Source of the DNA: Alphaproteobacteria bacterium
Lineage (GTDB): Bacteria; Pseudomonadota; Alphaproteobacteria; GCA-2746255
Assembly: GCA_965249135.1 (NCBI GenBank)
Contig: OZ252220.1
Coordinates: forward strand, 352,001 to 416,000
Reading direction: 5' to 3'
Length of the DNA stretch: 64,000 nucleotides
Shown piece after piece: positions 6,645 to 54,504 of the stretch. The position numbers were made by a program, and so were the translations under genes. A model generated the notes under the pieces. The model was not told where the DNA came from, did not search any database, and saw only the letters and a list, made by a program, of their open reading frames with translations. Within the stretch, counting starts at the first letter, position 1. The number at the start of each line of letters is the position of its first letter.

Positions 6645-6676
6645 CCCACATTGGGTTGAATGGGGGGGAGATCGTG

Positions 6677-6805: not shown

Positions 6806-6841
6806 GGAACACAAATGAGATCGGTTAAACGCAACACGCTC

Positions 6842-33837: not shown

Positions 33838-35615
33838 TACCGAACCTCCGGCATCCGGTGACGCGTATGGTCCTCGCGATGCTCAGTTGGACGTATCGCG
33901 CCCGCCCGGGTCGCGCTCGCCCGGGCTGCATGTGGCCGGACGGAGACCACCTGCATCATGCCGGCGTGCATGTGGTAGAGCAGGTGACAGTGGAAGGCCC
34001 AGTCCCCAGGCGCGTTCGCGGTGATGTCGACGGATAGTTTTTCCCCCGGCTTGACGATCACCGTGTGCTTGCGCGGCTTGTGGCCCTTGCTACCGTTCAC
34101 CAGCTCGAAGAACATGCCGTGAAGGTGGATTGGATGCGGCATCATGGTGTCGTTCACCATGGTGAGCCGCACCCGTTCGCCCTCGTGAAAAAGGATGGGG
34201 TCGACGACCTCGGAAAACTTCACGCCGTCGAACGACCACATATAGCGCTCCATGTTGCCGGTGAGATGGACCTCCACCTCGCGACTCGGCAGGCGGGTGT
34301 CCGGATTTGGATCGAGACTTCTGAGCTTGGCGTAGCTGAGCGTCCGGTGCGGAACGTCTTCGAGCCCGATCCCCGGTTCGTCCAGGCGACTCGCAGGCGC
34401 CATCGCCACATTGGTGACGCCTGGACCCATCGGATGATCGTGTTCCGTCATGGCGTGGTCGCCATGCCCCGCCATGCCCATGCCCCCCGCCATGCCCATG
34501 TCCTTCATGGTGAGCAGCGGGCGGGGCCGGAGCGGCGGCACCTTTGCCGTCATGCCCGGCCGCGGCGCCAGCGTCGCGCGGCCATAGCCCGACCGGTCGA
34601 TCGACTCGGCCATGAAGGTGAAGGCGCGCTCCGCCGTAGGCTGAACGATGATGTCATAGGTCTCCGCCACGCCCATCTGGAATTCGTCGGTTTCAAGGGG
34701 GCGCAGGTTGAGCCCGTCGGCCTGCACCACCGTCATCGGCAGGCCGGGAACGCGGACGTTGAAGATTGTCGTCGCCGAAGCGTTGATGATGCGCAGGCGT
34801 ACACGTTCGCCTGGATTGAAAAGTGCGGTCCAATTGTCCTCGGGCCCGTGGCCGTTGACCAGATAGGTATAAGTAGCCCCGGTCACATCCGCGATGTCGG
34901 TCGGCGACATGCCCATGCGCCCCCACAGGAGCCGGTCGTCCAGAGCGCTCGCCAGCCCATTCGTGCGTGCGTCTGCGAGGAAGTCGGTGAAGGCGCGTTT
35001 CTGGTAATTGAGACTCTCGCCGTTTTTCTTGAGTACGGCGAACAGGCGATGCGGGTCCATGAAGGTCCAGTCGGACAGCACGATGACGTATTCACGGTCG
35101 TACGCCACCGGATCGTTGCCGGCGGGATCGATGATGAGGGGGCCGTAATGGCCGAGCTGTTCCTGCAGCCCGGAGTGGCTGTGATACCAGTAGGTGCCCG
35201 ATTGGCGGACCGGGAAACGGTAGGTGAACGTTTCGCCGGGCCCGATGCCTGGGAAGGTGATGCCCGGCACCCCGTCCATCTGGAATGGCAGCAGGATGCC
35301 GTGCCAGTGGATCGACGTGTCCTCGTCAAGGCCATTCGTGACGCGCAGGGCGATCTCGTCGCCCTCGCGCCAGCGCAAGAGCGGGGCCGGAACCGTACCG
35401 TTGATGGTAACCGCGTTGCCGGGCCGGCCATCGATGGAAACGGGCGTCTGGCCAATTTTGAGATCAAAGGCCGTTCCGGACAGGGCGTTGATGCCGGATA
35501 GGGCGTTCGTCGTTGCACCGCGCGCCCATGCCGGGAGAAGGGCTTGATAAGCGATCAATCCGCCAACCGAGGCCGCCGTCCTCAAAAATTTTCGCCGTGT
35601 AAACATTCTTCCCAC
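33837..35615 (-). CDS. copA: Copper resistance multicopper oxidase CopA (PcoA type)
   Basis: Tat motif TRRKFL; HWH, WYHSH, HPIHLHG and HCHLLYHM copper motifs. Confidence 0.95.
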   Translation of the reverse strand: MGRMFTRRKFLRTAASVGGLIAYQALLPAWARGATTNALSGINALSGTAFDLKIGQTPVSIDGRPGNAVTINGTVPAPLLRWREGDEIALRVTNGLDEDTSIHWHGILLPFQMDGVPGITFPGIGPGETFTYRFPVRQSGTYWYHSHSGLQEQLGHYGPLIIDPAGNDPVAYDREYVIVLSDWTFMDPHRLFAVLKKNGESLNYQKRAFTDFLADARTNGLASALDDRLLWGRMGMSPTDIADVTGATYTYLVNGHGPEDNWTALFNPGERVRLRIINASATTIFNVRVPGLPMTVVQADGLNLRPLETDEFQMGVAETYDIIVQPTAERAFTFMAESIDRSGYGRATLAPRPGMTAKVPPLRPRPLLTMKDMGMAGGMGMAGHGDHAMTEHDHPMGPGVTNVAMAPASRLDEPGIGLEDVPHRTLSYAKLRSLDPNPDTRLPSREVEVHLTGNMERYMWSFDGVKFSEVVDPILFHEGERVRLTMVNDTMMPHPIHLHGMFFELVNGSKGHKPRKHTVIVKPGEKLSVDITANAPGDWAFHCHLLYHMHAGMMQVVSVRPHAARASATRAGAIRPTEHREDHTRHRMPEVR

Positions 35616-38459: not shown

Positions 38460-38870
38460 ATGCAGGATCGCCCCACCTCGGCCCAGCTTCTGGAAGCAGC
38501 CTGTGAGGCCTTTACCCGTGGGTTGTTGCCGCAAGCTTCGGGGGAGAAGCGCTATCTGGCGCTGATGGTCGCGAACGCGATGGGGATCGTAAGCCGCGAC
38601 CTTCGGACTTCGACCCAGTCATTGAAGCAAGAACGCGAGCGTCTTCAAGAGCTTTTCTCGCTTTCCTCATCCGAAATTGCAAACTCAGACGCGCTGCAGA
38701 GCGAGGTCGAGGCGCTGAACCGACGCTTGGCCGCCGAGATCGGCGCCGGTGCCTTTGATGCACCTGTCGAGGCCCGTGAACGGGTCAAGGCCCATCTTCT
38801 CGAGACCACCCGCGAGAAGCTCCGCGCCAGCAACCCGAAGCACTTAGAGGCGGAAAGGAAAGGCGAATGA
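38460..38870 (+). CDS. DUF6285 protein, LvaB-like
   Basis: MQDRPTSAQLL, Y.ALMVANAMGI..R and KL..SNPK. Confidence 0.8.
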   Translation: MQDRPTSAQLLEAACEAFTRGLLPQASGEKRYLALMVANAMGIVSRDLRTSTQSLKQERERLQELFSLSSSEIANSDALQSEVEALNRRLAAEIGAGAFDAPVEARERVKAHLLETTREKLRASNPKHLEAERKGE

Positions 38871-39184
38871 CAGTTTACCGCCCTCTGTATGGTGTCGGCG
38901 AGCTCGTCCACCATCGGCTTTTCGATTACCGGGGCGTCATCGTCGACGTCGATCCGGTCTTTCAAAACTCGGACGAATGGTACGAGGCGGTGGCCCGCTC
39001 CCGGCCGCCGAAGGACAAGCCCTGGTACCACGTCCTGGTGGACGGCGCCTTCCATCGGACCTATGTGGCCGAGCGGAATCTCGAGCCCGATGAAATGGGC
39101 GACCCGATCATGCACCCGGAGATCGGCGTTTTCTTCTCAGGCTTCGAGAAGGGGGCCTATGTGACGAACCAGCCGAAGAATTGA
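38867..39184 (+). CDS. hspQ: Heat shock protein HspQ
   Basis: HRLFDYRGVIVDVDP, PWYHVLV and YVAERNL. Confidence 0.9.
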   Translation: MTVYRPLYGVGELVHHRLFDYRGVIVDVDPVFQNSDEWYEAVARSRPPKDKPWYHVLVDGAFHRTYVAERNLEPDEMGDPIMHPEIGVFFSGFEKGAYVTNQPKN

Positions 39185-39187
39185 CGG

Positions 39188-39661
39188 CTATTTGATCTCA
39201 AAGACGTGGTAGGCGACCCCGTTCGGAATGCGCCGTCCAATCGCGATGGCCAGCACGCGGTTCAGCCAGTCGTACTTCTTGGAAGCGGTCTCGAAGCGCA
39301 TGGAACTTCGGAAATAAAGCGTCGAAGGGTCGATCTCCACGTCTTCCCAGAACCGCATGAATTTCTCCATCGTCTCCGGCGTGCCGTGGATGTAGCCATG
39401 GTAGAAGAGGTAGATGAGTTCGCCATCGTCCGTCTTGAGCTGGGTACGGACGTCGATGACCAGCGTCCCATCGTCAAGGATGCGCAGCCAATCCGCGCCT
39501 GGAGCCAGAACCTCCCCCTTCATCTTCGGGCCTTCGAATTCGCCGCCGATGACCTCGACGATCAGGCGGTGGCCGTTTTCCACCGTCTTGCCGACGTCGT
39601 GGACGGCGCCGCCCACGTAAAGCTTGATGTCGAACAGCAGCTCGCCTTGTAGCTCGGGCAA
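39188..39661 (-). CDS. DUF3237 family protein
   Basis: GGEFEGP, GADW, LKTDDG, YFR...FET and YDWLNR; TTG start with AGGAGAGG RBS. Confidence 0.85.
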   Translation of the reverse strand: MPELQGELLFDIKLYVGGAVHDVGKTVENGHRLIVEVIGGEFEGPKMKGEVLAPGADWLRILDDGTLVIDVRTQLKTDDGELIYLFYHGYIHGTPETMEKFMRFWEDVEIDPSTLYFRSSMRFETASKKYDWLNRVLAIAIGRRIPNGVAYHVFEIK

Positions 39662-39676
39662 TTGTGCTTTCCTCTC

Positions 39677-41377
39677 CTAGAAGACCGGCGTTTCGCGATA
39701 GGTCCCCCAAAGCTCCCTTAGGGCCTCGACGATGTCGCCCATGGAGGCGCCTGCCTTCACCAGCTCGACGGTGAGCGGCATCACGTTCTTCGTTTCGTCC
39801 TTCGCCACCTCGACGAGTTCCTTCAACAATTGCTGAACCTTCGCTTCGTCGCGGTCTTTTCGCACCTGGTTCAGCCGCCCGACCTGGCGTTCCGTGATGG
39901 TCTCGTCGTGGGCGTGGAGTTCCACGTCCAGCTTTTCGTCTTCTTCCGTGAACCGGTTGACGCCGATCAGCGGGTATTCGCCGCTCGCCTTCTTCGTCGC
40001 CGTCTCGTAGGCAAAATCGGCGATCTGGCGCTGGAACCAGCCTTCCTCGATCAGCTTCACCGTGCCGCCATGGGCATCGACCTCGTCGAGGATGCGGAAG
40101 GTTTCCTTCTCGAAGTAGGTCGTCAGGTTCTCGACGTAGTAGGACCCGCCCAATGGGTCGGCGACTTGGCTCACGTTCGATTCCTCGGCGATGACCTGCT
40201 GGGTGCGAAGCGCCAGCTTCATCGCCTCTTCCGTCGGAATGGCGAAGGCTTCGTCCATGCCGTTCACGTGCAGGCTTTGGGCGCCGCCCAGAACCGCAGA
40301 CAAGGCCTGTAGGGTCGTCCGCACGGTGTTGACGCGATATTGCGGCTTGGTCAGTGTCGCGGCGGCCGTTCCGCAGTGGAAACGTAGCCGCATCGATTCC
40401 GGGGATCGAGCCCCGAAGCGCTCCTTCATGATCTTCGCGTAGATGCGGCGTGCCGCCCGGAACTTGGCGATCTCCTCGAAGAAGTCCCGTTGGCAGACGA
40501 AGAAGAAGGAGAGGCGGGGCGCGAAGTCGTCGACGTCGATGCCGGCCTTCGTCACCTCGTCCACATAGGTGATCGTGTTCGCCATGGTGAAGGCGAGCTC
40601 CTGCAGCGGCGAGGAGCCGGCCTCCGAGATGTGATAGCCGGAGATGTTGATCGGGTTGAAGCGCTGCATGTGCTCGGCGCAGAACGTGATGCAATCGCGC
40701 ACGATGCGCACGGAGGGCCGGATCGGGTAGATCCATTCCTTTTGCGCCATGTACTCCTTCAGGATGTCGGCCTGGATGGTGCCGGCAAGCCGATGGGGGT
40801 CGAAGCCGCGCTTCTCGCCAAGGGCGTAGTACATGGCGAGCAGGATCCAGGCCGAAGGATTGATCGTCATGGAGACGGAGATGTTTTCCAGATCGATGTC
40901 GGCGTAGAGCGCTTCCATGTCGGCCAAGGTGTCGACGGCGACGCCTTCGCGGCCGACCTCGCCGGTGCTCATCGGGTGGTCCGAGTCGTAGCCCATCAGC
41001 GTCGGCATATCGAAATCCGTCGAGATGCCGGTCTGGCCCTGCGCAATCAGGTATTTGAAACGCCGGTTTGTGTCTTCACCCGTGCCGAAGCCGGCGATCT
41101 GGCGCATCGTCCAGGTGCGGCCGCGATACATGGTCGGGTAGGGGCCGCGGGTGAAAGGATATTGCCCGGGAAGCCCGATGTCCTCGATCGGGGTATCCTG
41201 CAGGTCGAGCGCCGTATAGACCCGCTTCACCGGAATGTCACCGAAGGTGGAAAAATCCTCCTTCTGTTCCGGCTGGCGTTTCAGGAAATGGGCGAGCTCT
41301 TCCTTCTCCCACTTCTCGAGCTGCTGCTCGAGCTGTTCGCGCGCCATGTTGTCCAGGGCCTGCTTCTCGTTGATCAT
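39677..41377 (-). CDS. hcmA: 2-hydroxyisobutyryl-CoA mutase large subunit, variant copy (Gly336)
   Basis: RQIAGFG (Ile94) and STDFDMPT (Asp121) Hcm signature; RFHCGT and SLHVNG in place of canonical RFHCQT and SLHTNG. Confidence 0.85.
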   Translation of the reverse strand: MINEKQALDNMAREQLEQQLEKWEKEELAHFLKRQPEQKEDFSTFGDIPVKRVYTALDLQDTPIEDIGLPGQYPFTRGPYPTMYRGRTWTMRQIAGFGTGEDTNRRFKYLIAQGQTGISTDFDMPTLMGYDSDHPMSTGEVGREGVAVDTLADMEALYADIDLENISVSMTINPSAWILLAMYYALGEKRGFDPHRLAGTIQADILKEYMAQKEWIYPIRPSVRIVRDCITFCAEHMQRFNPINISGYHISEAGSSPLQELAFTMANTITYVDEVTKAGIDVDDFAPRLSFFFVCQRDFFEEIAKFRAARRIYAKIMKERFGARSPESMRLRFHCGTAAATLTKPQYRVNTVRTTLQALSAVLGGAQSLHVNGMDEAFAIPTEEAMKLALRTQQVIAEESNVSQVADPLGGSYYVENLTTYFEKETFRILDEVDAHGGTVKLIEEGWFQRQIADFAYETATKKASGEYPLIGVNRFTEEDEKLDVELHAHDETITERQVGRLNQVRKDRDEAKVQQLLKELVEVAKDETKNVMPLTVELVKAGASMGDIVEALRELWGTYRETPVF

Positions 41378-41396
41378 CGCCTATCCTTTAAGCCGC

Positions 41397-43097
41397 CTAG
41401 AAGACCGGCGTTTCGCGATAGGTCCCCCAAAGCTCCCTTAGGGCCTCGACGATGTCGCCCATGGAGGCGCCTGCCTTCACCAGCTCGACGGTGAGCGGCA
41501 TCACGTTCTTCGTTTCGTCCTTCGCCACCTCGACGAGTTCCTTCAACAATTGCTGAACCTTCGCTTCGTCGCGGTCTTTTCGCACCTGGTTCAGCCGCCC
41601 GACCTGGCGTTCCGTGATGGTCTCGTCGTGGGCGTGGAGTTCCACGTCCAGCTTTTCGTCTTCTTCCGTGAACCGGTTGACGCCGATCAGCGGGTATTCG
41701 CCGCTCGCCTTCTTCGTCGCCGTCTCGTAGGCAAAATCGGCGATCTGGCGCTGGAACCAGCCTTCCTCGATCAGCTTCACCGTGCCGCCATGGGCATCGA
41801 CCTCGTCGAGGATGCGGAAGGTTTCCTTCTCGAAGTAGGTCGTCAGGTTCTCGACGTAGTAGGACCCGCCCAATGGGTCGGCGACTTGGCTCACGTTCGA
41901 TTCCTCGGCGATGACCTGCTGGGTGCGAAGCGCCAGCTTCATCGCCTCTTCCGTCGGAATGGCGAAGGCTTCGTCCATGCCGTTCGTGTGCAGGCTTTGG
42001 GCGCCGCCCAGAACCGCAGACAAGGCCTGCAAGGCCGTCCGGATGATGTTCACTTGATACTGCGGCTTGGTGAGCGTGGCTGCCGCCGTTTGACAGTGGA
42101 AACGTAGCCGCATCGATTCCGGGGATCGAGCCCCGAAGCGCTCCTTCATGATCTTCGCGTAGATGCGGCGTGCCGCCCGGAACTTGGCGATCTCCTCGAA
42201 GAAGTCCCGTTGGCAGACGAAGAAGAAGGAGAGGCGGGGCGCGAAGTCGTCGACGTCGATGCCGGCCTTCGTCACCTCGTCCACATAGGTGATCGTGTTC
42301 GCCATGGTGAAGGCGAGCTCCTGCAGCGGCGAGGAGCCGGCCTCCGAGATGTGATAGCCGGAGATGTTGATCGGGTTGAAGCGCTGCATGTGCTCGGCGC
42401 AGAACGTGATGCAATCGCGCACGATGCGCACGGAGGGCCGGATCGGGTAGATCCATTCCTTTTGCGCCATGTACTCCTTCAGGATGTCGGCCTGGATGGT
42501 GCCGGCAAGCCGATGGGGGTCGAAGCCGCGCTTCTCGCCAAGGGCGTAGTACATGGCGAGCAGGATCCAGGCCGAAGGATTGATCGTCATGGAGACGGAG
42601 ATGTTTTCCAGATCGATGTCGGCGTAGAGCGCTTCCATGTCGGCCAAGGTGTCGACGGCGACGCCTTCGCGGCCGACCTCGCCGGTGCTCATCGGGTGGT
42701 CCGAGTCGTAGCCCATCAGCGTCGGCATATCGAAATCCGTCGAGATGCCGGTCTGGCCCTGCGCAATCAGGTATTTGAAACGCCGGTTTGTGTCTTCACC
42801 CGTGCCGAAGCCGGCGATCTGGCGCATCGTCCAGGTGCGGCCGCGATACATGGTCGGGTAGGGGCCGCGGGTGAAAGGATATTGCCCGGGAAGCCCGATG
42901 TCCTCGATCGGGGTATCCTGCAGGTCGAGCGCCGTATAGACCCGCTTCACCGGAATGTCACCGAAGGTGGAAAAATCCTCCTTCTGTTCCGGCTGGCGTT
43001 TCAGGAAATGGGCGAGCTCTTCCTTCTCCCACTTCTCGAGCTGCTGCTCGAGCTGTTCGCGCGCCATGTTGTCCAGGGCCTGCTTCTCGTTGATCAT
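41397..43097 (-). CDS. hcmA: 2-hydroxyisobutyryl-CoA mutase large subunit, canonical copy
   Basis: Ile94/Asp121 signature; canonical RFHCQT and SLHTNGMDE; no B12-binding domain. Confidence 0.9.
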   Translation of the reverse strand: MINEKQALDNMAREQLEQQLEKWEKEELAHFLKRQPEQKEDFSTFGDIPVKRVYTALDLQDTPIEDIGLPGQYPFTRGPYPTMYRGRTWTMRQIAGFGTGEDTNRRFKYLIAQGQTGISTDFDMPTLMGYDSDHPMSTGEVGREGVAVDTLADMEALYADIDLENISVSMTINPSAWILLAMYYALGEKRGFDPHRLAGTIQADILKEYMAQKEWIYPIRPSVRIVRDCITFCAEHMQRFNPINISGYHISEAGSSPLQELAFTMANTITYVDEVTKAGIDVDDFAPRLSFFFVCQRDFFEEIAKFRAARRIYAKIMKERFGARSPESMRLRFHCQTAAATLTKPQYQVNIIRTALQALSAVLGGAQSLHTNGMDEAFAIPTEEAMKLALRTQQVIAEESNVSQVADPLGGSYYVENLTTYFEKETFRILDEVDAHGGTVKLIEEGWFQRQIADFAYETATKKASGEYPLIGVNRFTEEDEKLDVELHAHDETITERQVGRLNQVRKDRDEAKVQQLLKELVEVAKDETKNVMPLTVELVKAGASMGDIVEALRELWGTYRETPVF

Positions 43098-43100
43098 CGC

Positions 43101-44069
43101 CTATCCTTCCAACCGCATCTCGGCGAGCAGATCCACCGCCGCCGTGTATGGGTTCTTTTCATGGGCCATCATCTGGCCGATCAGTGCCGAGACTTTCCCG
43201 TCCCGGTGTTTCTTGAATTCGTCGCGCAAGATTTCTTCGGCCGTCTTCAACATCCGCCGTTCGGCGATTTGCTTTTTCCGTTCGGCGATTTCGCCGGAGG
43301 ATTCGAGGGCTTGCCGATGACGGTCGACCGCATCGACAAGCCCATCGATCCCCTCGGCCTTGAGCGCGCTCGTCGCGATCACCGGGACCTCCCAGCCGGA
43401 AGCCCCCGCAAGCGTTAATCCCAACGTCATCATAGCCTTTAAGTCGACGATCGTCCGGTTCGCATCCGGCCGGTCGCACTTGCTGACGACATGGATGTCC
43501 GCAATTTCAAGGATGCCCGCCTTGATCGCCTGGATGTCGTCGCCAAGACCGGGGGCGGAGATGACGACCGTCGTGTGCGCCGCCTGCACGATGTCCACCT
43601 CGTCCTGGCCGACGCCCACCGTCTCGATCAGGACCAAATCGAAACCGGCGGCATCCAGCACATCGACCGCATCCAGCGTGGATCGCGCCAGACCACCGAG
43701 CATGCCCCGCGTCGCCATGCTGCGGATGAAGATCCCCTTATCCCCCGAAAGCTCGTTCATCCGGATGCGATCGCCGAGGATGGCGCCGCCGGAGTAGGGG
43801 CTCGAGGGATCGATGGCGACGACGGCGATCTTGCGGTCGGACTTACGGACGGCGGCCATCAATTTTCCCATCAGTGTCGACTTGCCGCTTCCGGGAACGC
43901 CGGTGATGCCGACGATGTGCGCTCTTCCCGTGTGCCGATAGATATCGGCCATGGCCGGCCGGCACTCCTCGAGGCCCGACTCCGCGCGGGTGATCATCCG
44001 CGCGATCGCGCCGATGTCGGCGGCGAGCACCCGCTCGACGAGCTCAATGGAGGGGACGGCGTTGTTCAT
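43101..44069 (-). CDS. meaH: MeaB-family G-protein chaperone of the mutase
   Basis: GVPGSGKST, DPSSPYSGGAILGDRIRM, ETVGVGQ and GDDIQAIKAG. Confidence 0.9.
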   Translation of the reverse strand: MNNAVPSIELVERVLAADIGAIARMITRAESGLEECRPAMADIYRHTGRAHIVGITGVPGSGKSTLMGKLMAAVRKSDRKIAVVAIDPSSPYSGGAILGDRIRMNELSGDKGIFIRSMATRGMLGGLARSTLDAVDVLDAAGFDLVLIETVGVGQDEVDIVQAAHTTVVISAPGLGDDIQAIKAGILEIADIHVVSKCDRPDANRTIVDLKAMMTLGLTLAGASGWEVPVIATSALKAEGIDGLVDAVDRHRQALESSGEIAERKKQIAERRMLKTAEEILRDEFKKHRDGKVSALIGQMMAHEKNPYTAAVDLLAEMRLEG

Positions 44070-44073
44070 GGCG

Positions 44074-45507
44074 TCACGATCCGGTCATCTTATCTTGCAT
44101 CTCCCGGAAGACATCGCGGTCGTCGATGACGCGACGCGCCTTGAAGTCCGTCCGGGGGATCGAGTTAAGGGGCACGATCTCGACCTTCGTGCGCACCCCC
44201 AACACGCGTTGCAGATTGTCGGCGACGGTGATCCGGAAGCCCGTTATTGCTTCTTCGCCACGCTCGTGGAGCTCGGACGTTGCTTCCACGCGGACCAGCA
44301 ATTCATCCATGGTGCCCTCGCGCGAGACGATGATGCGGTGTTCGCCGCCATAGCCGTCGGTCTTGTTGAGGACGGCATCGATTTCGCTCGGATAGATGTT
44401 TTCCCCGCGAATCGTGAACTGATCGTCGATACGGCCGAAGATGCCGTGCGGAAGGTGCGGATAGGTCCGCCCGCATGGGGCGGGCCCGTCGTAGCGCCAC
44501 TCCGTGAGATCGCCAGACAGCAGGCGGATCATCGGCTGCGAGGTGCGCTCCAAATGCGTATAGACGGGCGTGCCCTTCTCGCCATAGGGGACGCGCCGGA
44601 AATTCACCGGATCGCACACTTCGCTATAGACGATGTCCTGCCACATCAGCATGCCTTCCGGCGTCCCTTCCGAGCCGGCGCAGTTCATCCATGGCGACAT
44701 CTCGGCCATCGAGCCGGAGTCGTAGATTTGGGCGCCATAGATAGCCTTGATCTTGTCGCGAATCCCGGGGATCGACGCCCCCGGCTCGCCGGAGAAGAAC
44801 AGGCATTTCAGGCCGAAGCTCTTCGGGTCCAGCCCTTCCTTGCGGGCCACCTCGCCCAGGTGCAGCGCATAGGAGGGCGTTCCATAAAAAGCCGTCGGCT
44901 TCATCTGATCGAGCCACTGGGCGGCGCGCGCGCTCATGCCGGGGGCGCCGGCGCCGAACGGGAAGGCCTTCGCGTGCAGGCGTTCGGCGCCGATCATCGC
45001 GCCCCACGAACCGAGGTAGAGGCTGAAGATCGCGGCGATGAAGATCGTATTGCCGGGGCGCAGGCCCATCCCGTAGATGATTCGCGCGTGCGCATTGGCA
45101 ATCGAGTCCCAATCGCCGCGGCCGATGGCGAACACGGTGGGCGTACCGGTGGTGCCGGACGTGCCGTGGATGTGATGGATCTCCGATTCGGGGATGCAAA
45201 GGTAATCGCCGAATTTCGGTGCCCGGGTTTGGGCCTCGCGCAAATCCTGTTTCGTCACCACCGGCACCTTGTCCTCGAAATCTTCGAGGGACTTCAGGTG
45301 GTCCGGATGAAAGCCCGCGTCGTCCCACTTCCGCTTGTAGAAGGGGGACTTGTCATAGGCGTAACGGGTGATCTCCTTGAGGCGTTCGAGTATCGCCTTT
45401 TCCCGGTCGCCTGGATCCATCGTTTCGCGCTTCGGAAACCAGTAGGGGGAAGCCGGATCCGGCAGGTAATCGGGATTGAATTTCGGTGGAAATGACCAGT
45501 CTTCCAT
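44074..45507 (-). CDS. hcl: 2-hydroxyisobutyrate-CoA ligase (PaaK-like ANL family)
   Basis: HGTSGTTG, SGEPG and GSMAE motifs; N-terminus MEDWSFPP..YWFPKRETM recalls Aquincola Hcl; lies between hcmB and meaH. Confidence 0.82.
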   Translation of the reverse strand: MEDWSFPPKFNPDYLPDPASPYWFPKRETMDPGDREKAILERLKEITRYAYDKSPFYKRKWDDAGFHPDHLKSLEDFEDKVPVVTKQDLREAQTRAPKFGDYLCIPESEIHHIHGTSGTTGTPTVFAIGRGDWDSIANAHARIIYGMGLRPGNTIFIAAIFSLYLGSWGAMIGAERLHAKAFPFGAGAPGMSARAAQWLDQMKPTAFYGTPSYALHLGEVARKEGLDPKSFGLKCLFFSGEPGASIPGIRDKIKAIYGAQIYDSGSMAEMSPWMNCAGSEGTPEGMLMWQDIVYSEVCDPVNFRRVPYGEKGTPVYTHLERTSQPMIRLLSGDLTEWRYDGPAPCGRTYPHLPHGIFGRIDDQFTIRGENIYPSEIDAVLNKTDGYGGEHRIIVSREGTMDELLVRVEATSELHERGEEAITGFRITVADNLQRVLGVRTKVEIVPLNSIPRTDFKARRVIDDRDVFREMQDKMTGS

Positions 45508-45525
45508 CTCGACTTTTCCTCCCGT

Positions 45526-45942
45526 CTAGCGTGGGCCGCGTTCGGCAACCAAACGCTGCATCGTCTCGATGATGGTTTGAGGGGGCGTGTCCTGTAGCAG
45601 GACCTCCTTCACCCCGATCTTTTTTAGCTTGTCGACTTCTTCATCCGGAATCACGCCGCCGCCGGTGACGATGATATCCTCGGCCTTGTTTTCCTTCAGC
45701 AATTCGATGAGGCGCGGGAACACGGTCATGTGGGCACCGGACAGGATGCTGACGCCGATGATGTCGACGTCTTCCTGAATCGCGGCACGGACGACTTCCT
45801 CCGGCGTGCGGTGTAGGCCGGTATAGATGACATCCATTCCGGCATCGCGAAGCGTGCGAGCCACGACTTTCACGCCACGGTCGTGGCCGTCCAGCCCGAC
45901 CTTTGCGATCAGTACGCGGATGATATCTGAACCCTGGCTCAT
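45526..45942 (-). CDS. hcmB: Mutase small cobalamin-binding subunit
   Basis: GLDGHDRG (DxHxxG), SILSGAH and GGVIP. Confidence 0.92.
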
Positions 45943-45975
45943 GGTCGAAACTCCCGGATTTTCTCGATCGGTTTC

Positions 45976-46647
45976 TTAGGCTGCCTGGCCGCTTTGCTTG
46001 TGAAGTACGTGCTGCAGTTTTTCGCTCGCCGCCTCGACGTGTTTTTGCGCCAGCGCTTCCGCTTCTTCGGCGTCGCCTTCGGCGATGGCGTCGAGGATCG
46101 CGTCGTGCTCCATCCACACGCTCTCGCCATAGCCTTCGATGCGCAGCACCGCACTCATCACACGCCGAAGGTGATTCAAGTAAAGGCGCATCGTATCGGC
46201 GACGATCGTGTTGCCGGAAAGTTCGTAAATCAGACGGTGAAACTCCATGTCCGCGGCGATCAGCTTCGCAACGGAACCATTGGCAATCGCCTTCTGGCCT
46301 TGGGCTACGATGCGTTTGCCCCGGGTGACGTCCTGGGCCGTCGCGTGTCTGGCCGCCAAGCGCGCCGCCAAGCGGTCGAGCGCGCTTCGAAACTCATAGA
46401 GCGAACGCACGAAGCCCTCCTCGAGGGGAGAGACCATCAGCCCCCGGCGGCCGGACTTGCAGACGAAGCCCTGGCTCTTCAGCAGCATCAGCGCCTGGCC
46501 GACCGGCTGGCGGGAGACGTTGAGCTGTTCGGCGATGCTCTCTTGGGCGAGGCGCTCGCTTGGGGGGAGGCGGCCGTCGCAGATGGAATCGAGGATGGTC
46601 GTGTAGACCTGTTCCATCATACGGGGTTGGACGAGAAGCTTGCGCAC
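45976..46647 (-). CDS. GntR-family (FCD) transcriptional regulator
   Basis: N-terminal wHTH (LNVSRQPV), D..FH...SGN and EH..ILDAI..GD; GTG start with AGGAGG RBS. Confidence 0.9.
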   Translation of the reverse strand: MRKLLVQPRMMEQVYTTILDSICDGRLPPSERLAQESIAEQLNVSRQPVGQALMLLKSQGFVCKSGRRGLMVSPLEEGFVRSLYEFRSALDRLAARLAARHATAQDVTRGKRIVAQGQKAIANGSVAKLIAADMEFHRLIYELSGNTIVADTMRLYLNHLRRVMSAVLRIEGYGESVWMEHDAILDAIAEGDAEEAEALAQKHVEAASEKLQHVLHKQSGQAA

Positions 46648-46660
46648 GGAATCCCTCCTA

Positions 46661-46685
46661 TTTATTGGATACTGTATACAATAAA
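46661..46685. promoter_or_regulatory. GntR operator 1
   Basis: Near-perfect palindrome TTTATTGGATAC-T-GTATACAATAAA just upstream of the gntR RBS. Confidence 0.75.
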
Positions 46686-46746
46686 CCGGACACGGCGCCG
46701 CCGCAAGAGGCTCGAAAAACAAGCAAATCTTTCAAACCCTTAGTCC

Positions 46747-48486
46747 TCATTCGTCCTCATTTCCGGCCTGCCAGGTGCGCTCGGCGCGGTCCCAGGCTTC
46801 CAGCGGCTGGGTGTCCGGCACCCAGGCTAGGCCCGACTTCCCATCGCCCGAGACCGCCTCGCGGGTCACCAGGACGTCGAGCACGGCCGGCGCGTTTTCG
46901 AAACAGCGTTCGATCGCATCGCCTAAATCCTCGACCCGCTCGACGCGTTCGCCATGGGCGCCAAGGGCGCGGGCCAGTGCGGCGTAATCCGAGTGGCGAA
47001 GTTCCGTGCCGACGAGGTTGCCGTCATAGGTGACGCGCTGGTCGTAGCATTCGATGTTCCAGGCGCCGTTATTGGCGACGACGAAGACCACCTTGGCACC
47101 GTGGCGGACGGCGGTGTCGACCTCGATCGCGTTGAATCCGAAGGAGCCATCCCCGGTTACGACGACGACCTGGCGGTCGGGCAGGGCAAGGGCGGCGGCG
47201 ATTCCAAACGGGACACCGACGCCGAGGCAACCCAAGGAGCCAGAGTCCATATAGGGGCCGGCCGACAGCGCCACGCGGGCGAAACTTAAGATGTCGCCGC
47301 CATCGGCAATGGTCACCGCATCCGGGGCGAGCTTCTCCTGCAAGATGCCGAGCAGGCGGTTCGGGTGCATGTGGCCGTCGCTTCCCGGTGCTGCCGTGGC
47401 GAGGAGGCGCGTGAATTTCTTCCGTTTCTTGCTGTGTTTCTCCCGCACGCCCTTCAGCCAGGCCCGGTCGACGGCGGGCTTTCGGTTGCCGGCCTCTTCC
47501 ACGATGGCGGTCAGCGCCAGCGCCGGTGTGGCCAGGATTTCAGCAAGCCCGCGCCGGTTGTCGCGAAGCTCGGATACGTATTCGGCCAGCCGTACGAAAC
47601 GCGCCTTCTTGAAGATGGCGGGCGATCCGTAGGCCAACTGGAAGTCGAGCCGTCGCCCGACGGTGAGCACGACGTCGGCTTCTGCCATCACCTGGCCGCG
47701 CAGCGAGGAAACCACCGCCGGGTGCGCATCGGGAACCAGACTGCGGCTTTCGGAGGTGTCGAGATAGACGGCATCCAGCGCATCGAGCAGGGCTAGAAGC
47801 TCAGGTCCCGCCTCCCTGGCACCGCGCCCGGAAACGACCAGCGGCCGCTTGGCGTTCCACAGCATCTCGACGGCGCGGCCCACGGCGTCGGCGTCCGGCA
47901 ACCGCTCGGGCTTCGGCTTTGCCTTTCGATGCTCCTCGAAGGCCAAATGGCCGGGCAAGTGTTCGCGCAGGAGATCGGTCGGAAAGTCGAGATAGACCGG
48001 GCCCGGCACGCAGCCGTCGCCGATCGCCCGGGCGAACGCCTCGTCGAGCGCCGGCAGCACGTGGGCCGCCTCCCGCACGGTCCGCGCATAGCGGGTGACG
48101 GAACGCAGCAGGTCCGTGTGCACCAGATCCTGGAGCGCGCCCATCCGTTCCTGGGGGCGGGGCGGCACGCCGGAGATGACGACGATCGGCGCCCGGGCCA
48201 CGTGGGCGTTGACGATGCCGGTCATCGCGTTCGTCACCCCGGGACCGGCCGTCGCCAAAACGACCCCGATGCCGCCGGTAAGTTCGGCATGGGCATGGGC
48301 CATATGGGCGGCGGCGCGCTCGTCACGGACATCCACGATACGGATCCCGCCCCGTGCGGCTTGGTCCCAGATCGGCATGACGTGACCGCCACACAGCCCG
48401 AAGATGCGGTCGATCCCACGCACGGCGAGGAATTCGGCGATCCGGCCGGCCACCGTCTCCGAGGCGGCGACGTCAGAGGCTCCCAT
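46747..48486 (-). CDS. ThDP-dependent 2-hydroxyacyl-CoA lyase-like enzyme
   Basis: GLCGGH, VRDE, GDGSFG...NNGAWNIE and C-terminal GLAWVPDTQPL, recalling actinobacterial 2-hydroxyisobutyryl-CoA lyase. Confidence 0.78.
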   Translation of the reverse strand: MGASDVAASETVAGRIAEFLAVRGIDRIFGLCGGHVMPIWDQAARGGIRIVDVRDERAAAHMAHAHAELTGGIGVVLATAGPGVTNAMTGIVNAHVARAPIVVISGVPPRPQERMGALQDLVHTDLLRSVTRYARTVREAAHVLPALDEAFARAIGDGCVPGPVYLDFPTDLLREHLPGHLAFEEHRKAKPKPERLPDADAVGRAVEMLWNAKRPLVVSGRGAREAGPELLALLDALDAVYLDTSESRSLVPDAHPAVVSSLRGQVMAEADVVLTVGRRLDFQLAYGSPAIFKKARFVRLAEYVSELRDNRRGLAEILATPALALTAIVEEAGNRKPAVDRAWLKGVREKHSKKRKKFTRLLATAAPGSDGHMHPNRLLGILQEKLAPDAVTIADGGDILSFARVALSAGPYMDSGSLGCLGVGVPFGIAAALALPDRQVVVVTGDGSFGFNAIEVDTAVRHGAKVVFVVANNGAWNIECYDQRVTYDGNLVGTELRHSDYAALARALGAHGERVERVEDLGDAIERCFENAPAVLDVLVTREAVSGDGKSGLAWVPDTQPLEAWDRAERTWQAGNEDE

Positions 48487-48551
48487 GCGGCGTTCTCCCA
48501 AGGGCAAATCGCATTAACTATTTGAATTATATATATTATATATTAGTTTAT

Positions 48552-48568
48552 TTGCATACTGTATACGA
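48552..48568. promoter_or_regulatory. GntR operator 2
   Basis: TTGCATACTGTATACGA matches the operator 1 core TTGGATACTGTATACAA at 15/17; upstream of the lyase gene. Confidence 0.7.
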
Positions 48569-48589
48569 TTTACAGGGGCTTCACAATGC

Positions 48590-49369
48590 TTATCCGCCGG
48601 CCCGGGCCGTTTTCGTCCTCGCCGCCTCCGTTAAGGCGATTCGACCCACGCCAGGGAGCAGAATGGCGGGCCTTAACGGGTCGAATCCGATGACAAGACC
48701 CATAAAATTAAGCTCAAACCCCTCTTTTTGGCCATAAAGCGCGCCTAAAAGCCCAAAAAACGAGATTTGATGGCCGGTTCCACTGGGAGCGGGGGCAAAA
48801 AACCCGTAATTCAACAGAAAATCCTTGCCGATGGCCGTCGGTGGCAGCGCCAGGCCAAGCTCCGGAACGGCGCGGGCCACATAGGCCGTGAAGGTGTTGC
48901 TGTTCGGTCCCGGCCACATACGGTAATTCGAATGGGGGTAGGCCGCGATGGCGGCGCGCATTTTTTCGAGCACCGCCTCGGCTGGCTTCCCCCGGATGTC
49001 GAGGATGATTTCCGGCGCGTTTCCATACCAATGGCGATCCGGCAGGTCTTCCTCCACCGACAACGCCGGTTTGCCGAACATCGGGTACCAGCCGACCACC
49101 TGGAAGACGGTGAACCGCGCTGCCTTCGCGGGCTTTACGGCGATCCACGTGTGCACCCCGAAGATCCCCCGCCACGAAAAGGCACGCGCCGCGTAGACCT
49201 GCAGGACGGCTTCGGACGTTTCGGCCGGATCCGGCGCAATGCCTGCGCTTTGCCGATCCGCCGTCCGCCAATCGGCGTCGAACTCGACCTCGTCTGCGGC
49301 CAGGCTGACCAGCGGGCCGGCCGCGAAAAGCAGCACGAAAAGCGCCAAAATCCACTGCCATTTGGCCAT
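48590..49369 (-). CDS. DUF3750 family protein
   Basis: WRGIFGVHTW, WPGPNSNTF and LPPTAIGKD. Confidence 0.85.
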   Translation of the reverse strand: MAKWQWILALFVLLFAAGPLVSLAADEVEFDADWRTADRQSAGIAPDPAETSEAVLQVYAARAFSWRGIFGVHTWIAVKPAKAARFTVFQVVGWYPMFGKPALSVEEDLPDRHWYGNAPEIILDIRGKPAEAVLEKMRAAIAAYPHSNYRMWPGPNSNTFTAYVARAVPELGLALPPTAIGKDFLLNYGFFAPAPSGTGHQISFFGLLGALYGQKEGFELNFMGLVIGFDPLRPAILLPGVGRIALTEAARTKTARAGG

Positions 49370-49482
49370 GAAAGGATGTTAGCATTTGCGATCGGGACGC
49401 ACTACTTTGCCTGAGTTGGCGGTAGCACTGGGGCGTGAAAAGGCTTTTGTTTTTTACCGAAGGCGCTCTTTTCTATAGTTTT

Positions 49483-49983
49483 ATGGTAAGATTTTTATTT
49501 ATTTTATTGATTTCACTGACGTTTTTTGTCGGAACTGCCCATGCCGACTTCGACGAAGGACTCAGCGCCTACAAGCAGAAAGACTTCAAGAAGGCGTTTG
49601 AAGAATGGCAGCCGCTGGCCGAGCAGGGCGACATGCTGGCCCAGTTCTACCTCGGCCTGATCTATGGCTTCGGCCAAGGCGTCGAGAAGGACCTCGCCGA
49701 GGCGATCCGCTGGTGGCGGCGGTCGGCCGAGCAGGGCAACATCGCCGCCCAGTCCAATCTCGGCTTCATGTATAAATACGGCAATGGCGTGCCCCAGGAC
49801 ATCGTGCTGGCCTATATGTGGTCGAAAATCGCGGCCACGGGTGGCGCCAGCTTTGCCAAAGCGAATCTTAAGGTCATGTCGAAGGAAATGACCGAGACGG
49901 ACATCCAAAAGGCGGAACAACTCGCCAGGGAGTGGCGGGCATCCCATCCTGCGGCCGCCGCCTCGCCGGGCGTGGCCCCTTAA
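49483..49983 (+). CDS. Exported Sel1-like repeat protein
   Basis: AEQG..AQ..LG..Y..G.GV repeats and a signal peptide. Confidence 0.88.
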   Translation: MVRFLFILLISLTFFVGTAHADFDEGLSAYKQKDFKKAFEEWQPLAEQGDMLAQFYLGLIYGFGQGVEKDLAEAIRWWRRSAEQGNIAAQSNLGFMYKYGNGVPQDIVLAYMWSKIAATGGASFAKANLKVMSKEMTETDIQKAEQLAREWRASHPAAAASPGVAP

Positions 49984-49990
49984 GAATCCC

Positions 49991-50740
49991 ATGGGGTGGA
50001 ACTACCTCCGGGCGAATAACCTTGCGGCGCTTCTGTTTCTCGTTGCCATCGCGCTGGCGTCGGATGCCACGGACTATTACTTGCAATATCGCAAGGCACT
50101 CGTGCTTCGCATCGACGCGCGGGCCTTTGCCGTCGAAGAGGAAACCGGCGTTGCGATCCTCGATCGCCGGGTGATCGCCGCCATCACCCACGTGCCGCGC
50201 CATCGCTTCGTGCCGATGCGCCTCCAGGCCTTCGCCTATTCCGATGTGCCGCTGCCCGTGGGTCACGGTCAGAACATCTCGACCCCGTTTCTTATCGCGT
50301 TGATGACGGATTTGGCGCGTATCAATAAGGACGACGTCGTCTTCGAGACCGGCACGGGCGCCGGCTACCATGCCGCCGTCCTGGCCGAGCTCGGCAAGCA
50401 GGTGTACAGCGTCGAGGTCGTCGAGCCACTTGCCGGCAAAGCGTCGGACACGCTCAGGAGGCTTGGCTACGGGAACATCGAAACCCGGGTCGGCGACGGC
50501 TATTTCGGCTGGGAGGATCGGGGGCCGTTCGATGCGATCCTCGTGAAGGAGGCGGTCGACCATGTGCCGCCGCCCTTGCTCAAGCAGCTTAGCCTGGGCG
50601 GGCGCATGATCATCCCCGTCGGTCCATTGGAGGGCACCCAGGAGTTGCTCGTCATCGAGAAGGATCTTGAGGGCGTCTTGCGCAAACGAAGCGTGCTGAC
50701 GGTTCGTTTCTCTCCCCTGCAGGGCGGAAGCCGGATCTAA
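49991..50740 (+). CDS. pcm: Protein-L-isoaspartate O-methyltransferase, copy 1
   Basis: VPRHRFV, GQNISTP, GTGAGYHAA, GDGYFGW and GGRMIIPVG. Confidence 0.88.
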   Translation: MGWNYLRANNLAALLFLVAIALASDATDYYLQYRKALVLRIDARAFAVEEETGVAILDRRVIAAITHVPRHRFVPMRLQAFAYSDVPLPVGHGQNISTPFLIALMTDLARINKDDVVFETGTGAGYHAAVLAELGKQVYSVEVVEPLAGKASDTLRRLGYGNIETRVGDGYFGWEDRGPFDAILVKEAVDHVPPPLLKQLSLGGRMIIPVGPLEGTQELLVIEKDLEGVLRKRSVLTVRFSPLQGGSRI

Positions 50741-52755
50741 TTTTCAAGGCGACAGGTTTATGGGCAAGTCGCTGACTCGAAATGTCCGTGAGGTGCAAAG
50801 CTAACATTCGCCGCTTGGCCTCGAAGGTCTGCTTTTAGGCAGGAGGGGATGTTTGATGGGTTACGGAAACCGGAATTATATTGGATCGTTGACCGAGCAG
50901 GCCACTCCTCCGCACCCTAAGACTAGGTACGTCCGGCGGATCGAGGAACGGTGAGTAGTGATGCACATAAGCCATGTAGAAATCAGCAATTTTCGGTCGC
51001 TGCAGTCGGTGTCGGTGCCGTTAAATACGTTCAGTGTTTTGCTTGGTGAGAACGATGTGGGGAAAACTTCATTCCTTCATGCTCTCGACAAGTTCTTCCT
51101 TGGTAAGAAGCTCGTTGATCCCAACGATTGGTTCAAGAAGGACACGGGCAACGAAATCCGCATTGTGCTCACTTTTCAGGAAGCTCCCCACGACAGGCTA
51201 AAAGATTTTTGTCGCAGCGATGGGTCAATCGTAGTGAGCAAAGTGTTTCCGTTCGGCGAAAGCCCCCAAATCAAGGCAATTCTCGACGACAATTCCGCTA
51301 TGAGCATCCCAGGGCCGATACTGAGCAAGTGGTTCTCATCGGAGCGATTTCACTTCATTCCTGTCCGTCGTGACCTTGCAGTCCAGCTCTCAATGACCAA
51401 GACCGCTCTTCTCGGAAAAATGCTACGGGCTCGAATGAAGGAAAAACTTACAGATGGGGGCACCAAGACATCTCTTGAAGAACTGGAACACCTCCTTATG
51501 GATTCAATCTCCGAGCCGAGAACAATGCTTGAGAACTTTCTGCGACAGCAGATGCACGATAATGCTGTCCGACTCGGATTTGACGATCTCGAAATCGATC
51601 CGGTGGAGGGGGTCAAGTTCGTTGTGAACTTGTCTGATGATCGCGTAGATAACGTGAAAATTGAAAATCGGGGTGCGGGAACACAGAATAACTTGATCAT
51701 CGCTCTTTTCCGGTTGGTCGCTGACCTTGCTGCCGAGGGCTACCTAATCTTGGCGATGGAGGAACCCGAAAATAGTCTTCATCCGAAGGCACAACGTCAG
51801 CTCTTGTCGGTAATCCAAGAGATTAGCGTCAAATCGCAGGTTATCGTCACCACCCATTCACCTGTATTCATCGATCGGAGCCGTTTCGAGAACAATGTCC
51901 TAATGACACGTACTGCCAGCGGGAACACCGTTGCTAAGACGTTCGATGTTTCGTTACTCGATGAGGTCCGAACCGATCTCGGAATACGGGCGTCAGACGC
52001 GCTCCTTAAGGGCGGTGGAAACTGCGCGATATTAGTTGAAGGTAGTACAGAGGAGGATGGATTTCCAACCTTCATGGAGATGTGTGGAATGAGTGAATTC
52101 CACTTGGGTATCGCAATCATCAATATGAACGGCAGCGACTCTAAAAGAGCCGAAACAATCGCCCGATTACTCTACGCATATGATATCCCCTGCATCATTG
52201 TTTTTGATCGAAATGCAGAAAACGCGGCTAAGGATTTAGAGCGCGCAGCAGCAGCCTCGCTCCCAAACATTAAAAAAGTGTTCTGCCTGAGGAAGGGCAA
52301 CATCGAAGATTACTTTCCCCTTGAAATTATTGCGGATGTCATCAATCGCGAATTAAGTCCGACAAAGGAAGTTACCGTAACTGATTTCGATTCGAGCAAG
52401 TCGGGACAAGACCGTCTCAATGATTTCAAGAAGGTTATGTACGAACACGGAGCTGGCGGATCCACCAGGTACTTGAAAAGACTCCTCGGTGGTCTCGGGG
52501 CCAGGTTGATAAAGGAACGAGCTATACCCCTCGATCCTGAACTTGTTGAAATATTCAACACTGTTAAGGCAATTGCCGATCCGGATTAGGTTCGGAACAC
52601 CGGCTAGGAAGGGGCGGGCGCATGATCATCCCCGTCGGTCCATTGGAGGGCACCCAGGAGTTGCTCGTCATCGAGAAGGATCTTGAGGGCGTCTTGCGCA
52701 AACGAAGCGTGCTGACGGTTCGTTTCTCTCCCCTGCAGGGCGGAGGCCGGATCTA
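50596..52755. mobile_element. Integrase-less islet bounded by a 144-bp direct repeat (50596-50739 and 52612-52755)
   Basis: 143/144 identical copies of the pcm 3' end flank a visibly AT-richer gene. Confidence 0.8.
50958..52589 (+). CDS. OLD-family ATP-dependent nuclease (ABC ATPase plus TOPRIM)
   Basis: NFRS, GENDVGKTS, GAGTQ, MEEPENSLHP, TTHSP, ILVEGSTE and IEDYF. Confidence 0.88.
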   Translation: MMHISHVEISNFRSLQSVSVPLNTFSVLLGENDVGKTSFLHALDKFFLGKKLVDPNDWFKKDTGNEIRIVLTFQEAPHDRLKDFCRSDGSIVVSKVFPFGESPQIKAILDDNSAMSIPGPILSKWFSSERFHFIPVRRDLAVQLSMTKTALLGKMLRARMKEKLTDGGTKTSLEELEHLLMDSISEPRTMLENFLRQQMHDNAVRLGFDDLEIDPVEGVKFVVNLSDDRVDNVKIENRGAGTQNNLIIALFRLVADLAAEGYLILAMEEPENSLHPKAQRQLLSVIQEISVKSQVIVTTHSPVFIDRSRFENNVLMTRTASGNTVAKTFDVSLLDEVRTDLGIRASDALLKGGGNCAILVEGSTEEDGFPTFMEMCGMSEFHLGIAIINMNGSDSKRAETIARLLYAYDIPCIIVFDRNAENAAKDLERAAAASLPNIKKVFCLRKGNIEDYFPLEIIADVINRELSPTKEVTVTDFDSSKSGQDRLNDFKKVMYEHGAGGSTRYLKRLLGGLGARLIKERAIPLDPELVEIFNTVKAIADPD

Positions 52756-53710: not shown

Positions 53711-53740
53711 CGAGACTTCCTCCGATCCTTCGGCTTCCTC

Positions 53741-53782
53741 ATTCCCAGGGCGCCAATTCCCAGGGCGCCAATTCCTAGGGCG
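53741..53782. repeat. 15-bp tandem repeat, about 3 copies
   Basis: ATTCCCAGGGCGCCA twice, then ATTCCTAGGGCG. Confidence 0.85.
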
Positions 53783-53891
53783 AAGGGATAAGGATTGTCG
53801 CACGAAGCGGAGGAAAGGGAAGGGCCGGACCTTTTTGGCCAGACCTTTCCTTGTTAGGCCAGGCCCTTCCTTGAAAACTGGCCTTGAAAAC

Positions 53892-53967
53892 TGGCTCCCC
53901 GGGTCGGACTCGAACCAACGACACAGCGGTTAACAGCCGCTTGCTCTACCAACTGAGCTACCGGGGA
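53892..53967 (-). tRNA. tRNA-Asn(GTT)
   Basis: 76-nt cloverleaf, AGCGG-CTGTTAA-CCGCT anticodon arm, CCA end. Confidence 0.97.
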
Positions 53968-54430: not shown

Positions 54431-54504
54431 TGGAGGCGCGGGCCGGAATCGAACCGGCGTACACAGATTTGCAGTCTGCTGGATAACCACTCTCCCACCG
54501 CGCC
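54431..54504 (-). tRNA. tRNA-Cys(GCA)
   Basis: 74-nt cloverleaf, GCAGA-CTGCAAA-TCTGT anticodon arm, UCCA end. Confidence 0.96.

Follow-up and report, generated by a model that had tools for sequence, protein, structure and literature searches.

Tertiary 2-hydroxy acids block ordinary β-oxidation, and to our knowledge just two enzymatic solutions exist for them. Here we describe an operon that appears to encode both, found in a window of 64,000 nucleotides (the whole stretch of DNA analyzed, positions 352,001–416,000 of contig OZ252220.1, assembly GCA_965249135.1) from an alphaproteobacterium; all positions are those of the window unless stated otherwise. The B12-dependent mutase route of Aquincola and the thiamine diphosphate (ThDP)-dependent lyase route of Actinomycetospora are treated as alternatives and are combined only in the proposal made for Desulfococcus biacutus (PMC7176365); an original prediction made from the window sequence had named these three cases, and they are indeed all present in that source.

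The closest described relative on the mutase side is the hcm cluster of Aquincola tertiaricarbonis L108 and Methylibium petroleiphilum PM1, which has the same hcl, hcmA, hcmB and meaH genes with a GntR-family regulator nearby (PMC7176365). On the lyase side, it is the cluster of Actinomycetospora chiangmaiensis DSM 45062, where the gene of the lyase AcHACL (PDB 7PT1–4) is linked to hcl, as in the window. The anaerobe D. biacutus also unites a ThDP enzyme with a mutase for 2-hydroxyisobutyryl-CoA, but it lacks a 2-hydroxyisobutyrate-CoA ligase (HCL), its mutase is RcmAB-like, and its ThDP enzyme, with 685 residues, shares only 22% identity with AcHACL (PMC7176365). Finally, ibc cluster 2 of Mycolicibacterium sp. 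ELW1 combines a B12 mutase, 2-hydroxyisobutyrate genes, a FadR/GntR regulator and a ThDP lyase, the latter as a possible minor route; unlike the window operon, it lies on an actinobacterial plasmid dedicated to isobutylene catabolism, and the passages available describe no twin mutase (PMC13188929). This is the only paper in which we found a lyase mentioned beside a mutase. Our literature searches found no proteobacterial lyase–hcm operon in the texts, although figures and supplements (Fig. 1B of PMC7176365, Table S2 of PMC13188929) may show more. The lyase–mutase pairing is therefore known already; what is new here is a pair of twin mutases in which two positions are held apart.

The window operon consists of eight head-to-tail open reading frames (ORFs) on the minus strand (39188–48507), separated by 3–33 nt and identified from the ORF list, Pfam and NCBIfam:

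46747–48507, minus strand: AcHACL-type 2-hydroxyacyl-CoA lyase, ThDP-dependent (NF058623; PF02776, PF00205 and PF02775)
45976–46722, minus strand: GntR/FCD-family transcriptional regulator (PF00392 and PF07729)
45526–45942, minus strand: hcmB, B12-binding small subunit (PF02310, TIGR00640; 195 bits to PDB 4r3u_C)
44074–45507, minus strand: hcl, 2-hydroxyisobutyrate-CoA ligase (782 bits to PDB 6hdw, 2-hydroxyisobutyryl-CoA synthetase)
43101–44069, minus strand: meaH, MeaB-family G-protein chaperone (PF03308; TIGR00750 at 326 bits, cut-off 241)
41397–43097, minus strand: hcmA, canonical large subunit with I94, D121, Q336 and T371 (PF01642, 692 bits)
39677–41377, minus strand: hcmA′, tandem copy with G336, R348, T351, V352, T355 and V371 (980 bits to PDB 4r3u_A)
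39188–39661, minus strand: DUF3237 protein, last gene of the array (PF11578, 140 bits)

The first seven of these, which the original prediction had placed on one strand, are all confirmed by ORFs, Pfam and NCBIfam, and the array is probably co-transcribed. Its mutase part has the features of an HcmAB system, i.e. a separate small subunit with the DxHxxG motif (DGHDRG in HcmB), a MeaB-type chaperone and an HCL in one operon, and the scores listed above for HcmA, HcmB and HCL tie it to the Aquincola/Methylibium proteins (PDB 4R3U, 6HDW). Pfam and NCBIfam name the HCL a PaaK-like ligase, and it remains under the PaaK cut-off; among solved structures, PaaK scores 230 bits, compared to 782 bits for 6hdw. 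Compared to the Aquincola/Methylibium cluster, the window operon has an AcHACL-type lyase at its head, a tandem hcmA with Q336G and T371V in one copy, and a DUF3237 gene at its end; its host, an alphaproteobacterium of 2.1 Mb, yielded no markers of corrin-ring synthesis. Compared to the Actinomycetospora cluster, it has mutase genes and no mpdB/mpdC-type dehydrogenase genes. It also departs from the D. biacutus system in having an AcHACL-type lyase (579–586 residues), an HcmAB-type mutase and an hcl gene.

We incline, at slightly better than even, to the view that this operon serves to break down 2-hydroxyisobutyrate, and probably also closely related tertiary 2-hydroxy acids, with the mutase as the main exit and the lyase as a bypass. 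In this scheme, HCL would form 2-hydroxyisobutyryl-CoA, which HcmA/HcmB, with adenosylcobalamin and the MeaH chaperone, would convert to 3-hydroxybutyryl-CoA; this productive exit would be continued by a 3-hydroxyacyl-CoA dehydrogenase whose gene lies outside the operon, the genome having a 3HCDH match of 216 bits for this step. The AcHACL-type lyase would provide a second, B12-independent exit by splitting 2-hydroxyisobutyryl-CoA into acetone and formyl-CoA, a low-yield reaction that would free CoA from trapping when imported B12 runs short. The second hcmA would be kept near-identical to the first by gene conversion, with selection holding Q336G and T371V, and its product would use the same HcmB and MeaH and would probably differ in substrate or stereospecificity.

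The identity of the lyase is well supported. It matches the 2-hydroxyacyl-CoA lyase equivalog NF058623 at 851.9 bits (cut-off 600), whereas its scores against acetolactate synthase (PRK05858, 350.9 bits for a cut-off of 587) and oxalyl-CoA decarboxylase (PRK09259, 239 bits for a cut-off of 557) both fall short. The Actinomycetospora lyase 7pt1 aligns with it at 622 bits across 572 residues, the runner-up PDB entry reaching 198 bits. The likelier start is the ATG at 48486, because it yields 579 residues, the size of the 98%-identical protein P0001, and fits the end of the cluster as originally predicted. In AcHACL, E493 is catalytic, L127 and Q128 line the acyl pocket, Q41 hydrogen-bonds E493 and a C-terminal lid restricts substrates to C5 or shorter (PMC8760513, from whose passages the residue numbering was set, with a chain offset of 11). 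E65, L127, Q128, I492 and E493 are all conserved in the window lyase: the ThDP motif GDGSFG...VANNG and the Glu of VRDE (E65) align with their AcHACL counterparts, as do WNIE and ALQD (WNIE and PLQD in AcHACL), and the lid is conserved by sequence, the alignment reaching chain residue 594 of the 612 in 7pt1. In a 12-sequence alignment of lyase relatives, L125, Q126 and E486 are invariant, as is E63, the cofactor-activating Glu (E65 in AcHACL). Besides its proteobacterial host, the window lyase differs from AcHACL at Q41, FGLQGGH being replaced by FGLCGGH. Since the Cys (residue 39) is invariant in the 12 aligned relatives, this substitution is, judging from the alignment, a trait of the clade and no lesion.

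What would the lyase be for? The window genome (a single 2.118-Mb contig of 2,118,282 bp, 98.75% complete) encodes five mutase large-subunit homologs and a PduO-type adenosyltransferase, together with a BtuB-like receptor (317 bits, under its cut-off) and a CbiB-like match that is broken by a TGA. CobN was not found in this genome, nor was CbiC, which was also absent from every genome of the genus searched (0/6). Because neither CobN nor CbiC was found, the organism seems to depend on imported corrinoid, without corrin-ring synthesis of its own. Given this apparent inability, we read the lyase as a low-yield B12-independent bypass, a role and direction that we consider about evenly poised between true and false. 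The backup function raised by the original prediction thereby gains indirect support.

The same prediction had offered, as its other option, the condensation of a ketone with formyl-CoA. In such an assimilatory direction, as proposed for D. biacutus, the lyase would condense acetone or butanone with formyl-CoA and the mutases would convert the product to a 3-hydroxyacyl-CoA. The AcHACL reaction is described as reversible (PMC8760513), the D. biacutus case provides a precedent (PMC7176365, PMC7888143), and the genome encodes a ketone-carboxylase-family enzyme, so that ketones may be met. Nevertheless, cleavage is favored over condensation because the operon has hcl, which is absent from D. biacutus (PMC7176365), and a GntR/FCD regulator of the acid-sensing type, and because no formyl-CoA source was found, be it in the operon or, in the genome, as a formyl-CoA transferase (frc) equivalog (best match 185 bits for a cut-off of 504) or a formate–tetrahydrofolate ligase (FTHFS). 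Moreover, the operon has an HcmAB-type and not an RcmAB-like mutase, and the Km of a related lyase for acetone exceeds 1 M (PMC7176365). Altogether, an assimilatory role is improbable.

The lyase family is not confined to actinobacteria. It comprises 6626 protein clusters at E ≤ 1e-80, with relatives in at least 590 species genomes, mostly Pseudomonadota; among the matches listed, most genomes belong to the Burkholderiales, Acetobacteraceae and Hyphomicrobiaceae, and some to the Myxococcota. The lyase is present in all five other species of the window's genus (79–85% identity), while none of 35 other alphaproteobacterial families sampled gave a match at E ≤ 1e-100. To survey the pairing, 80 lyase loci from other species (L007–L086) were searched for hcmA within 10 kb of the lyase, including two (L066 and L082) that gave no full-length lyase match under the filter. 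At least 15 of the 80 carry hcmA, a lower bound since contig ends cut many loci; beyond these 15, L039 shows hcmB and hcl near the lyase at a contig end. Eight hcm-linked loci share the order hcmB–hcl–meaH–hcmA–lyase on a single strand, and the window's genus has the order lyase–gntR–hcmB–hcl–meaH–hcmA, with the GntR/FCD gene kept between the lyase and hcmB across the genus. On a lyase tree of 84 rows (two duplicate genomes included), the hcm-linked label requires 5 changes, compared to a mean of 19.6 when labels are shuffled, and none of 500 shuffles was as low. The cluster, which the original prediction had implied to be singular, is a real and conserved variant of the hcm operon, under-described yet not unique, given these loci and the ELW1 cluster (PMC13188929). 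Both solutions thus stand in one operon in many Proteobacteria and Myxococcota, and their pairing in an apparently B12-importing genome makes the timing of the B12 versus the thiamine route directly testable.

Lyase loci devoid of hcm genes tell a different story about the ligase: in seven of the eight annotated ones, a generic AMP-binding acyl-CoA synthetase lies beside or near the lyase, and a ligase–lyase pair therefore seems to be the commoner setting of the family. This pattern suggests a broader ligase–lyase module and bears on a possible division of labor, in which HCL would activate several 2-hydroxy acids, the mutase would take 2-hydroxyisobutyryl-CoA and the lyase would clear the rest, e.g. 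2-hydroxy-2-methylbutyryl-CoA, without competition between the two. Such an arrangement would also agree with the equal rates at which AcHACL turns over 2-hydroxy-2-methylbutyryl-CoA and 2-hydroxyisobutyryl-CoA (PMC7176365). We nonetheless find it rather unlikely: L127, I492 and the lid that sets the C5 limit of AcHACL are conserved, arguing for a narrow substrate range of the lyase, and it leaves unexplained why a B12 auxotroph should keep both enzymes.

Separately, a hexapeptide-repeat (LbH) protein of about 350–410 residues follows the lyase in four betaproteobacterial hcm–lyase loci, and the window operon has none:

L009, 12475–13725: LbH protein
L023, 11783–12901: LbH protein
L032, 11918–12976: LbH protein
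L063, 11720–12754: LbH protein

We now turn to the twin mutases. The two hcmA genes form a tandem repeat of 1713 bp with a period of 1720 bp, and their products are identical at 560/566 residues. All 20 base differences lie inside nt 1005–1112 of the gene, a clustering whose probability by chance is bounded at P ≤ 3.6e-22:

40266–40373, minus strand: 108-nt divergent patch of hcmA′ (counterpart in hcmA at 41986–42093)

The differences affect 9 codons synonymously and 6 non-synonymously, the outermost residue changes (hcmA to hcmA′) being Q336G and T371V, with Q348R, I351T, I352V and A355T between them. hcmA′ has an unbroken reading frame and retains I94, D121 and E376. Positions were assigned by aligning hcmA′ with 4r3u, and the canonical copy is identical to hcmA′ at positions 94 and 121; both copies hence have Ile and Asp at the sites of HcmA I90 and D117 (I94 in TMRQIAGF, D121 in ISTDFD), residues which we take to bind the hydroxyacyl group and to have a role in specificity.

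An assembly artifact or collapsed alleles can be dismissed. A 304-nt contig from public run X1 covers the patch with 0 differences, a contig of the same run crosses the tandem junction with 0 mismatches, and in run X6, from another study, a 1198-nt contig crosses the junction in a related strain, where the spacer is 10 nt shorter; in addition, both forms occur in two further assemblies. In run X5, from a third study, codon 336 is GGA (Gly). A diversity-generating retroelement was also considered as the source of the patch and rejected, A being present at only 6/20 differing bases in the copy at 41397–43097 and 4/20 in the copy at 39677–41377.

The database search was limited to the patch segment, and exact look-up of the sequences retrieved then gave the pairs. 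Q336 and T371 occur together in 118 of the 120 best hits, and the G and V combination only in P0122 and P0123. The pairs are as follows:

Window genome: P0243 (canonical) and P0241 (variant), 6 residues differ
Assembly with longest contig of 652,446: P0128 (canonical) and P0123 (variant), 2 residues differ
Assembly with longest contig of 566,716: P0127 (canonical) and P0242 (variant), 2 residues differ

In the two pairs that differ by 2 residues, the differences are at 336 and 371 alone, the interior of the patch having been converted too in P0123 and P0242; P0122 has the background of P0123 with the full patch. G336 and V371 are thus kept in the four variant sequences (window hcmA′, P0122, P0123 and P0242). 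HcmA differs at 14–21 residues between assemblies, compared to 2–6 within an assembly. It looks as if the copies evolve in concert, by gene conversion, with selection acting on two sites.

Both positions are otherwise strongly conserved among HcmA proteins. Q336 and T371 are present in all 20 other HcmA rows from the loci (18 genomes), and Q336 also in the three other mutase paralogs of the genome. The Gln of HCQT and the Thr of LHTNG are found in the copy at 41397–43097 and replaced in the copy at 39677–41377, which is therefore filed as an HcmA-derived variant and not as a proven HcmA, since G336/V371 break the Q/T pair conserved in the orthologs examined. Across the superfamily (150 mutase representatives), these positions vary by clade, with Q in 82 and G in 15 at position 336, and T in 85, V in 18 and L in 11 at position 371. 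E376 is kept in 137 of the 141 representatives covered, and none of the 150 combines D121 with G336. Positions 336 and 371, which are Q332 and T367 in HcmA numbering, presumably match Q330 and T365 in the methylmalonyl-CoA mutase of Propionibacterium, where they would lie close to the adenosyl/substrate cavity, an equivalence that we provisionally assume.

Could the variant copy be dead or redundant? It might be a catalytically inactive, structural partner in the heterotetramer, bacterial methylmalonyl-CoA mutase being known to have an inactive subunit, or a dosage duplicate with two tolerated changes. As Q and T are fixed in the other HcmA sequences (20/20 and 118/120) and Q336 extends to the three paralogs, replacing both could abolish activity. 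We consider this somewhat unlikely, because neutral or decaying differences would be erased or would multiply, whereas here both changes persist in four sequences and at least three backgrounds while the rest is repeatedly homogenized; besides, the frame is intact, I94, D121 and E376 are kept, and G and V are native to other mutase clades (15 and 18 of the 150 representatives, respectively). The G336/V371 pattern agrees better with a variant in specificity than with a copy in decay. Our proposal, a tentative one that we place below even, is that HcmA′ is the large subunit of an acyl-CoA mutase of novel substrate or stereospecificity, that it shares HcmB and MeaH with HcmA, and that selection holds its two residues apart amid gene conversion. 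One possibility for its substrate is a bulkier tertiary 2-hydroxyacyl-CoA, e.g. 2-hydroxy-2-methylbutyryl-CoA. The idea, put forward in the original prediction, that a second mutase extends the range to butanone fails insofar as it supposed divergent enzymes, the copies being 99% identical, but its spirit may hold, as two conserved positions differ and do so in all related assemblies where the variant occurs. If HcmA′ does have a new specificity, the operon would offer three exits for tertiary 2-hydroxyacyl-CoAs, two B12-dependent and one thiamine-dependent. The twin mutases constitute a clean natural experiment and a two-mutation lead for acyl-CoA mutase specificity; engineering work on such mutases aims at C1 and C3 pathways, and rational first-shell changes inactivated the enzyme in one such study (PMC11599936).

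Several observations weigh against our reading of the operon. First, the AcHACL residue that positions E493, Q41, is a Cys in the window lyase and its 12 aligned relatives. Second, the absence of B12 synthesis rests on two marker families. Third, the C1 product of the lyase has no recognized sink among the enzymes sought in the genome: besides the transferase and FTHFS mentioned above, the α subunit of a molybdenum formate dehydrogenase was not found, and no NAD-dependent formate dehydrogenase scored above its cut-off. In addition, the sole ketone carboxylase of the genome is only distantly related to acetone carboxylase, matching 5svb at 370 bits across 724 residues, and the lyase branch may therefore yield little. 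Fourth, the usual substrate of the lyase family may not be 2-hydroxyisobutyryl-CoA, because its partner is mostly a generic acyl-CoA synthetase and not HCL (7/8 loci checked). Finally, hcmA is single in each of five relatives from GTDB; this may reflect the collapse of repeats in short-read assemblies, which would be expected of such a repeat, so that a single copy does not show the duplication to be absent, or else the duplication may be confined to one species group.

The ketone carboxylase relative belongs to a group of three acetone/acetophenone carboxylase-family genes at 1339175–1344220 of the genome contig (G000:C1; 11176–16221 in L094), which encode a 744-residue α-like protein, a 188-residue γ subunit (PF08882, 135 bits) and a 737-residue subunit. 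Their neighbors are a cyclohexanecarboxyl-CoA dehydrogenase equivalog, two old yellow enzyme-type reductases, a family III CoA-transferase and an acyl-CoA synthetase. Identification as a true acetone carboxylase is not supported, the match being at family level only; the genes lie among those for alicyclic acyl-CoA metabolism.

Two further features lie upstream of the lyase:

48508–48589, minus strand: AT-rich intergenic region, candidate promoter/operator, containing TCGTATACAG at 48559–48568
48590–49369, minus strand: DUF3750 protein (PF12570)

The 10-mer TCGTATACAG has this one exact match, and the sole 1-mismatch match in the window (46672–46681) falls within the gntR ORF, at its 5′ end. 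A putative role as a GntR operator is no more than a hint: both matches with at most 1 mismatch fall inside the operon, and the 9 matches at up to 2 mismatches are fewer than the 18.5 expected by chance. In region 38800–49600, a promoter scan gave 1 promoter-like site for 2.2 expected and a terminator scan no informative minus-strand terminator. Rfam returned four tRNAs as its only matches in the window and no cobalamin riboswitch. Whether the DUF3750 gene belongs to the operon is uncertain; it is a conserved neighbor in three genomes (G001, G002 and G003), and locus L047 has it close to the lyase. The DUF3237 gene, which starts 15 nt past the final hcmA, has an equivalent position in 2/5 other genomes of the genus (G003 and G004) and in 0 loci of other lineages. 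Neither was retained as a core part of the system, their occurrence being limited to the genus plus one Acetobacteraceae locus.

Elsewhere in the window, a single OLD-family ATPase/TOPRIM gene (50958–52589, plus strand), whose best PADLOC matches are GajA (138 bits), AriA and Old, lies in a stretch of lower GC content (0.55–0.58 compared to about 0.62), beside tRNA genes at 53895–53967 and 54434–54504. The adjacent 345-residue ORF (52766–53803) has no match in Pfam or PADLOC, and this stretch may be a small defense islet. Two protein-L-isoaspartate O-methyltransferase paralogs lie less than 5 kb apart (49991–50740 and 54616–55332, plus strand). A transposase cluster occupies 1887–10586 (rve, DDE_3, Mu-transposase C-terminal domain and IS21 IstB), with an autotransporter gene at 3814–6426 beside the transposases and tRNA genes then at 11054 and 11504. 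The 447-residue ORF at 15015–16358 (plus strand), which has a FUR-family domain (residues 36–152) and an ABC ATPase domain (residues 216–343) and adjoins a ZnuA gene, is either a Zur–ZnuC fusion or an artifact of ORF calling. Finally, a copper-resistance pair, a CopA-like multicopper oxidase and CopB, is encoded at 33049–35615 (minus strand).

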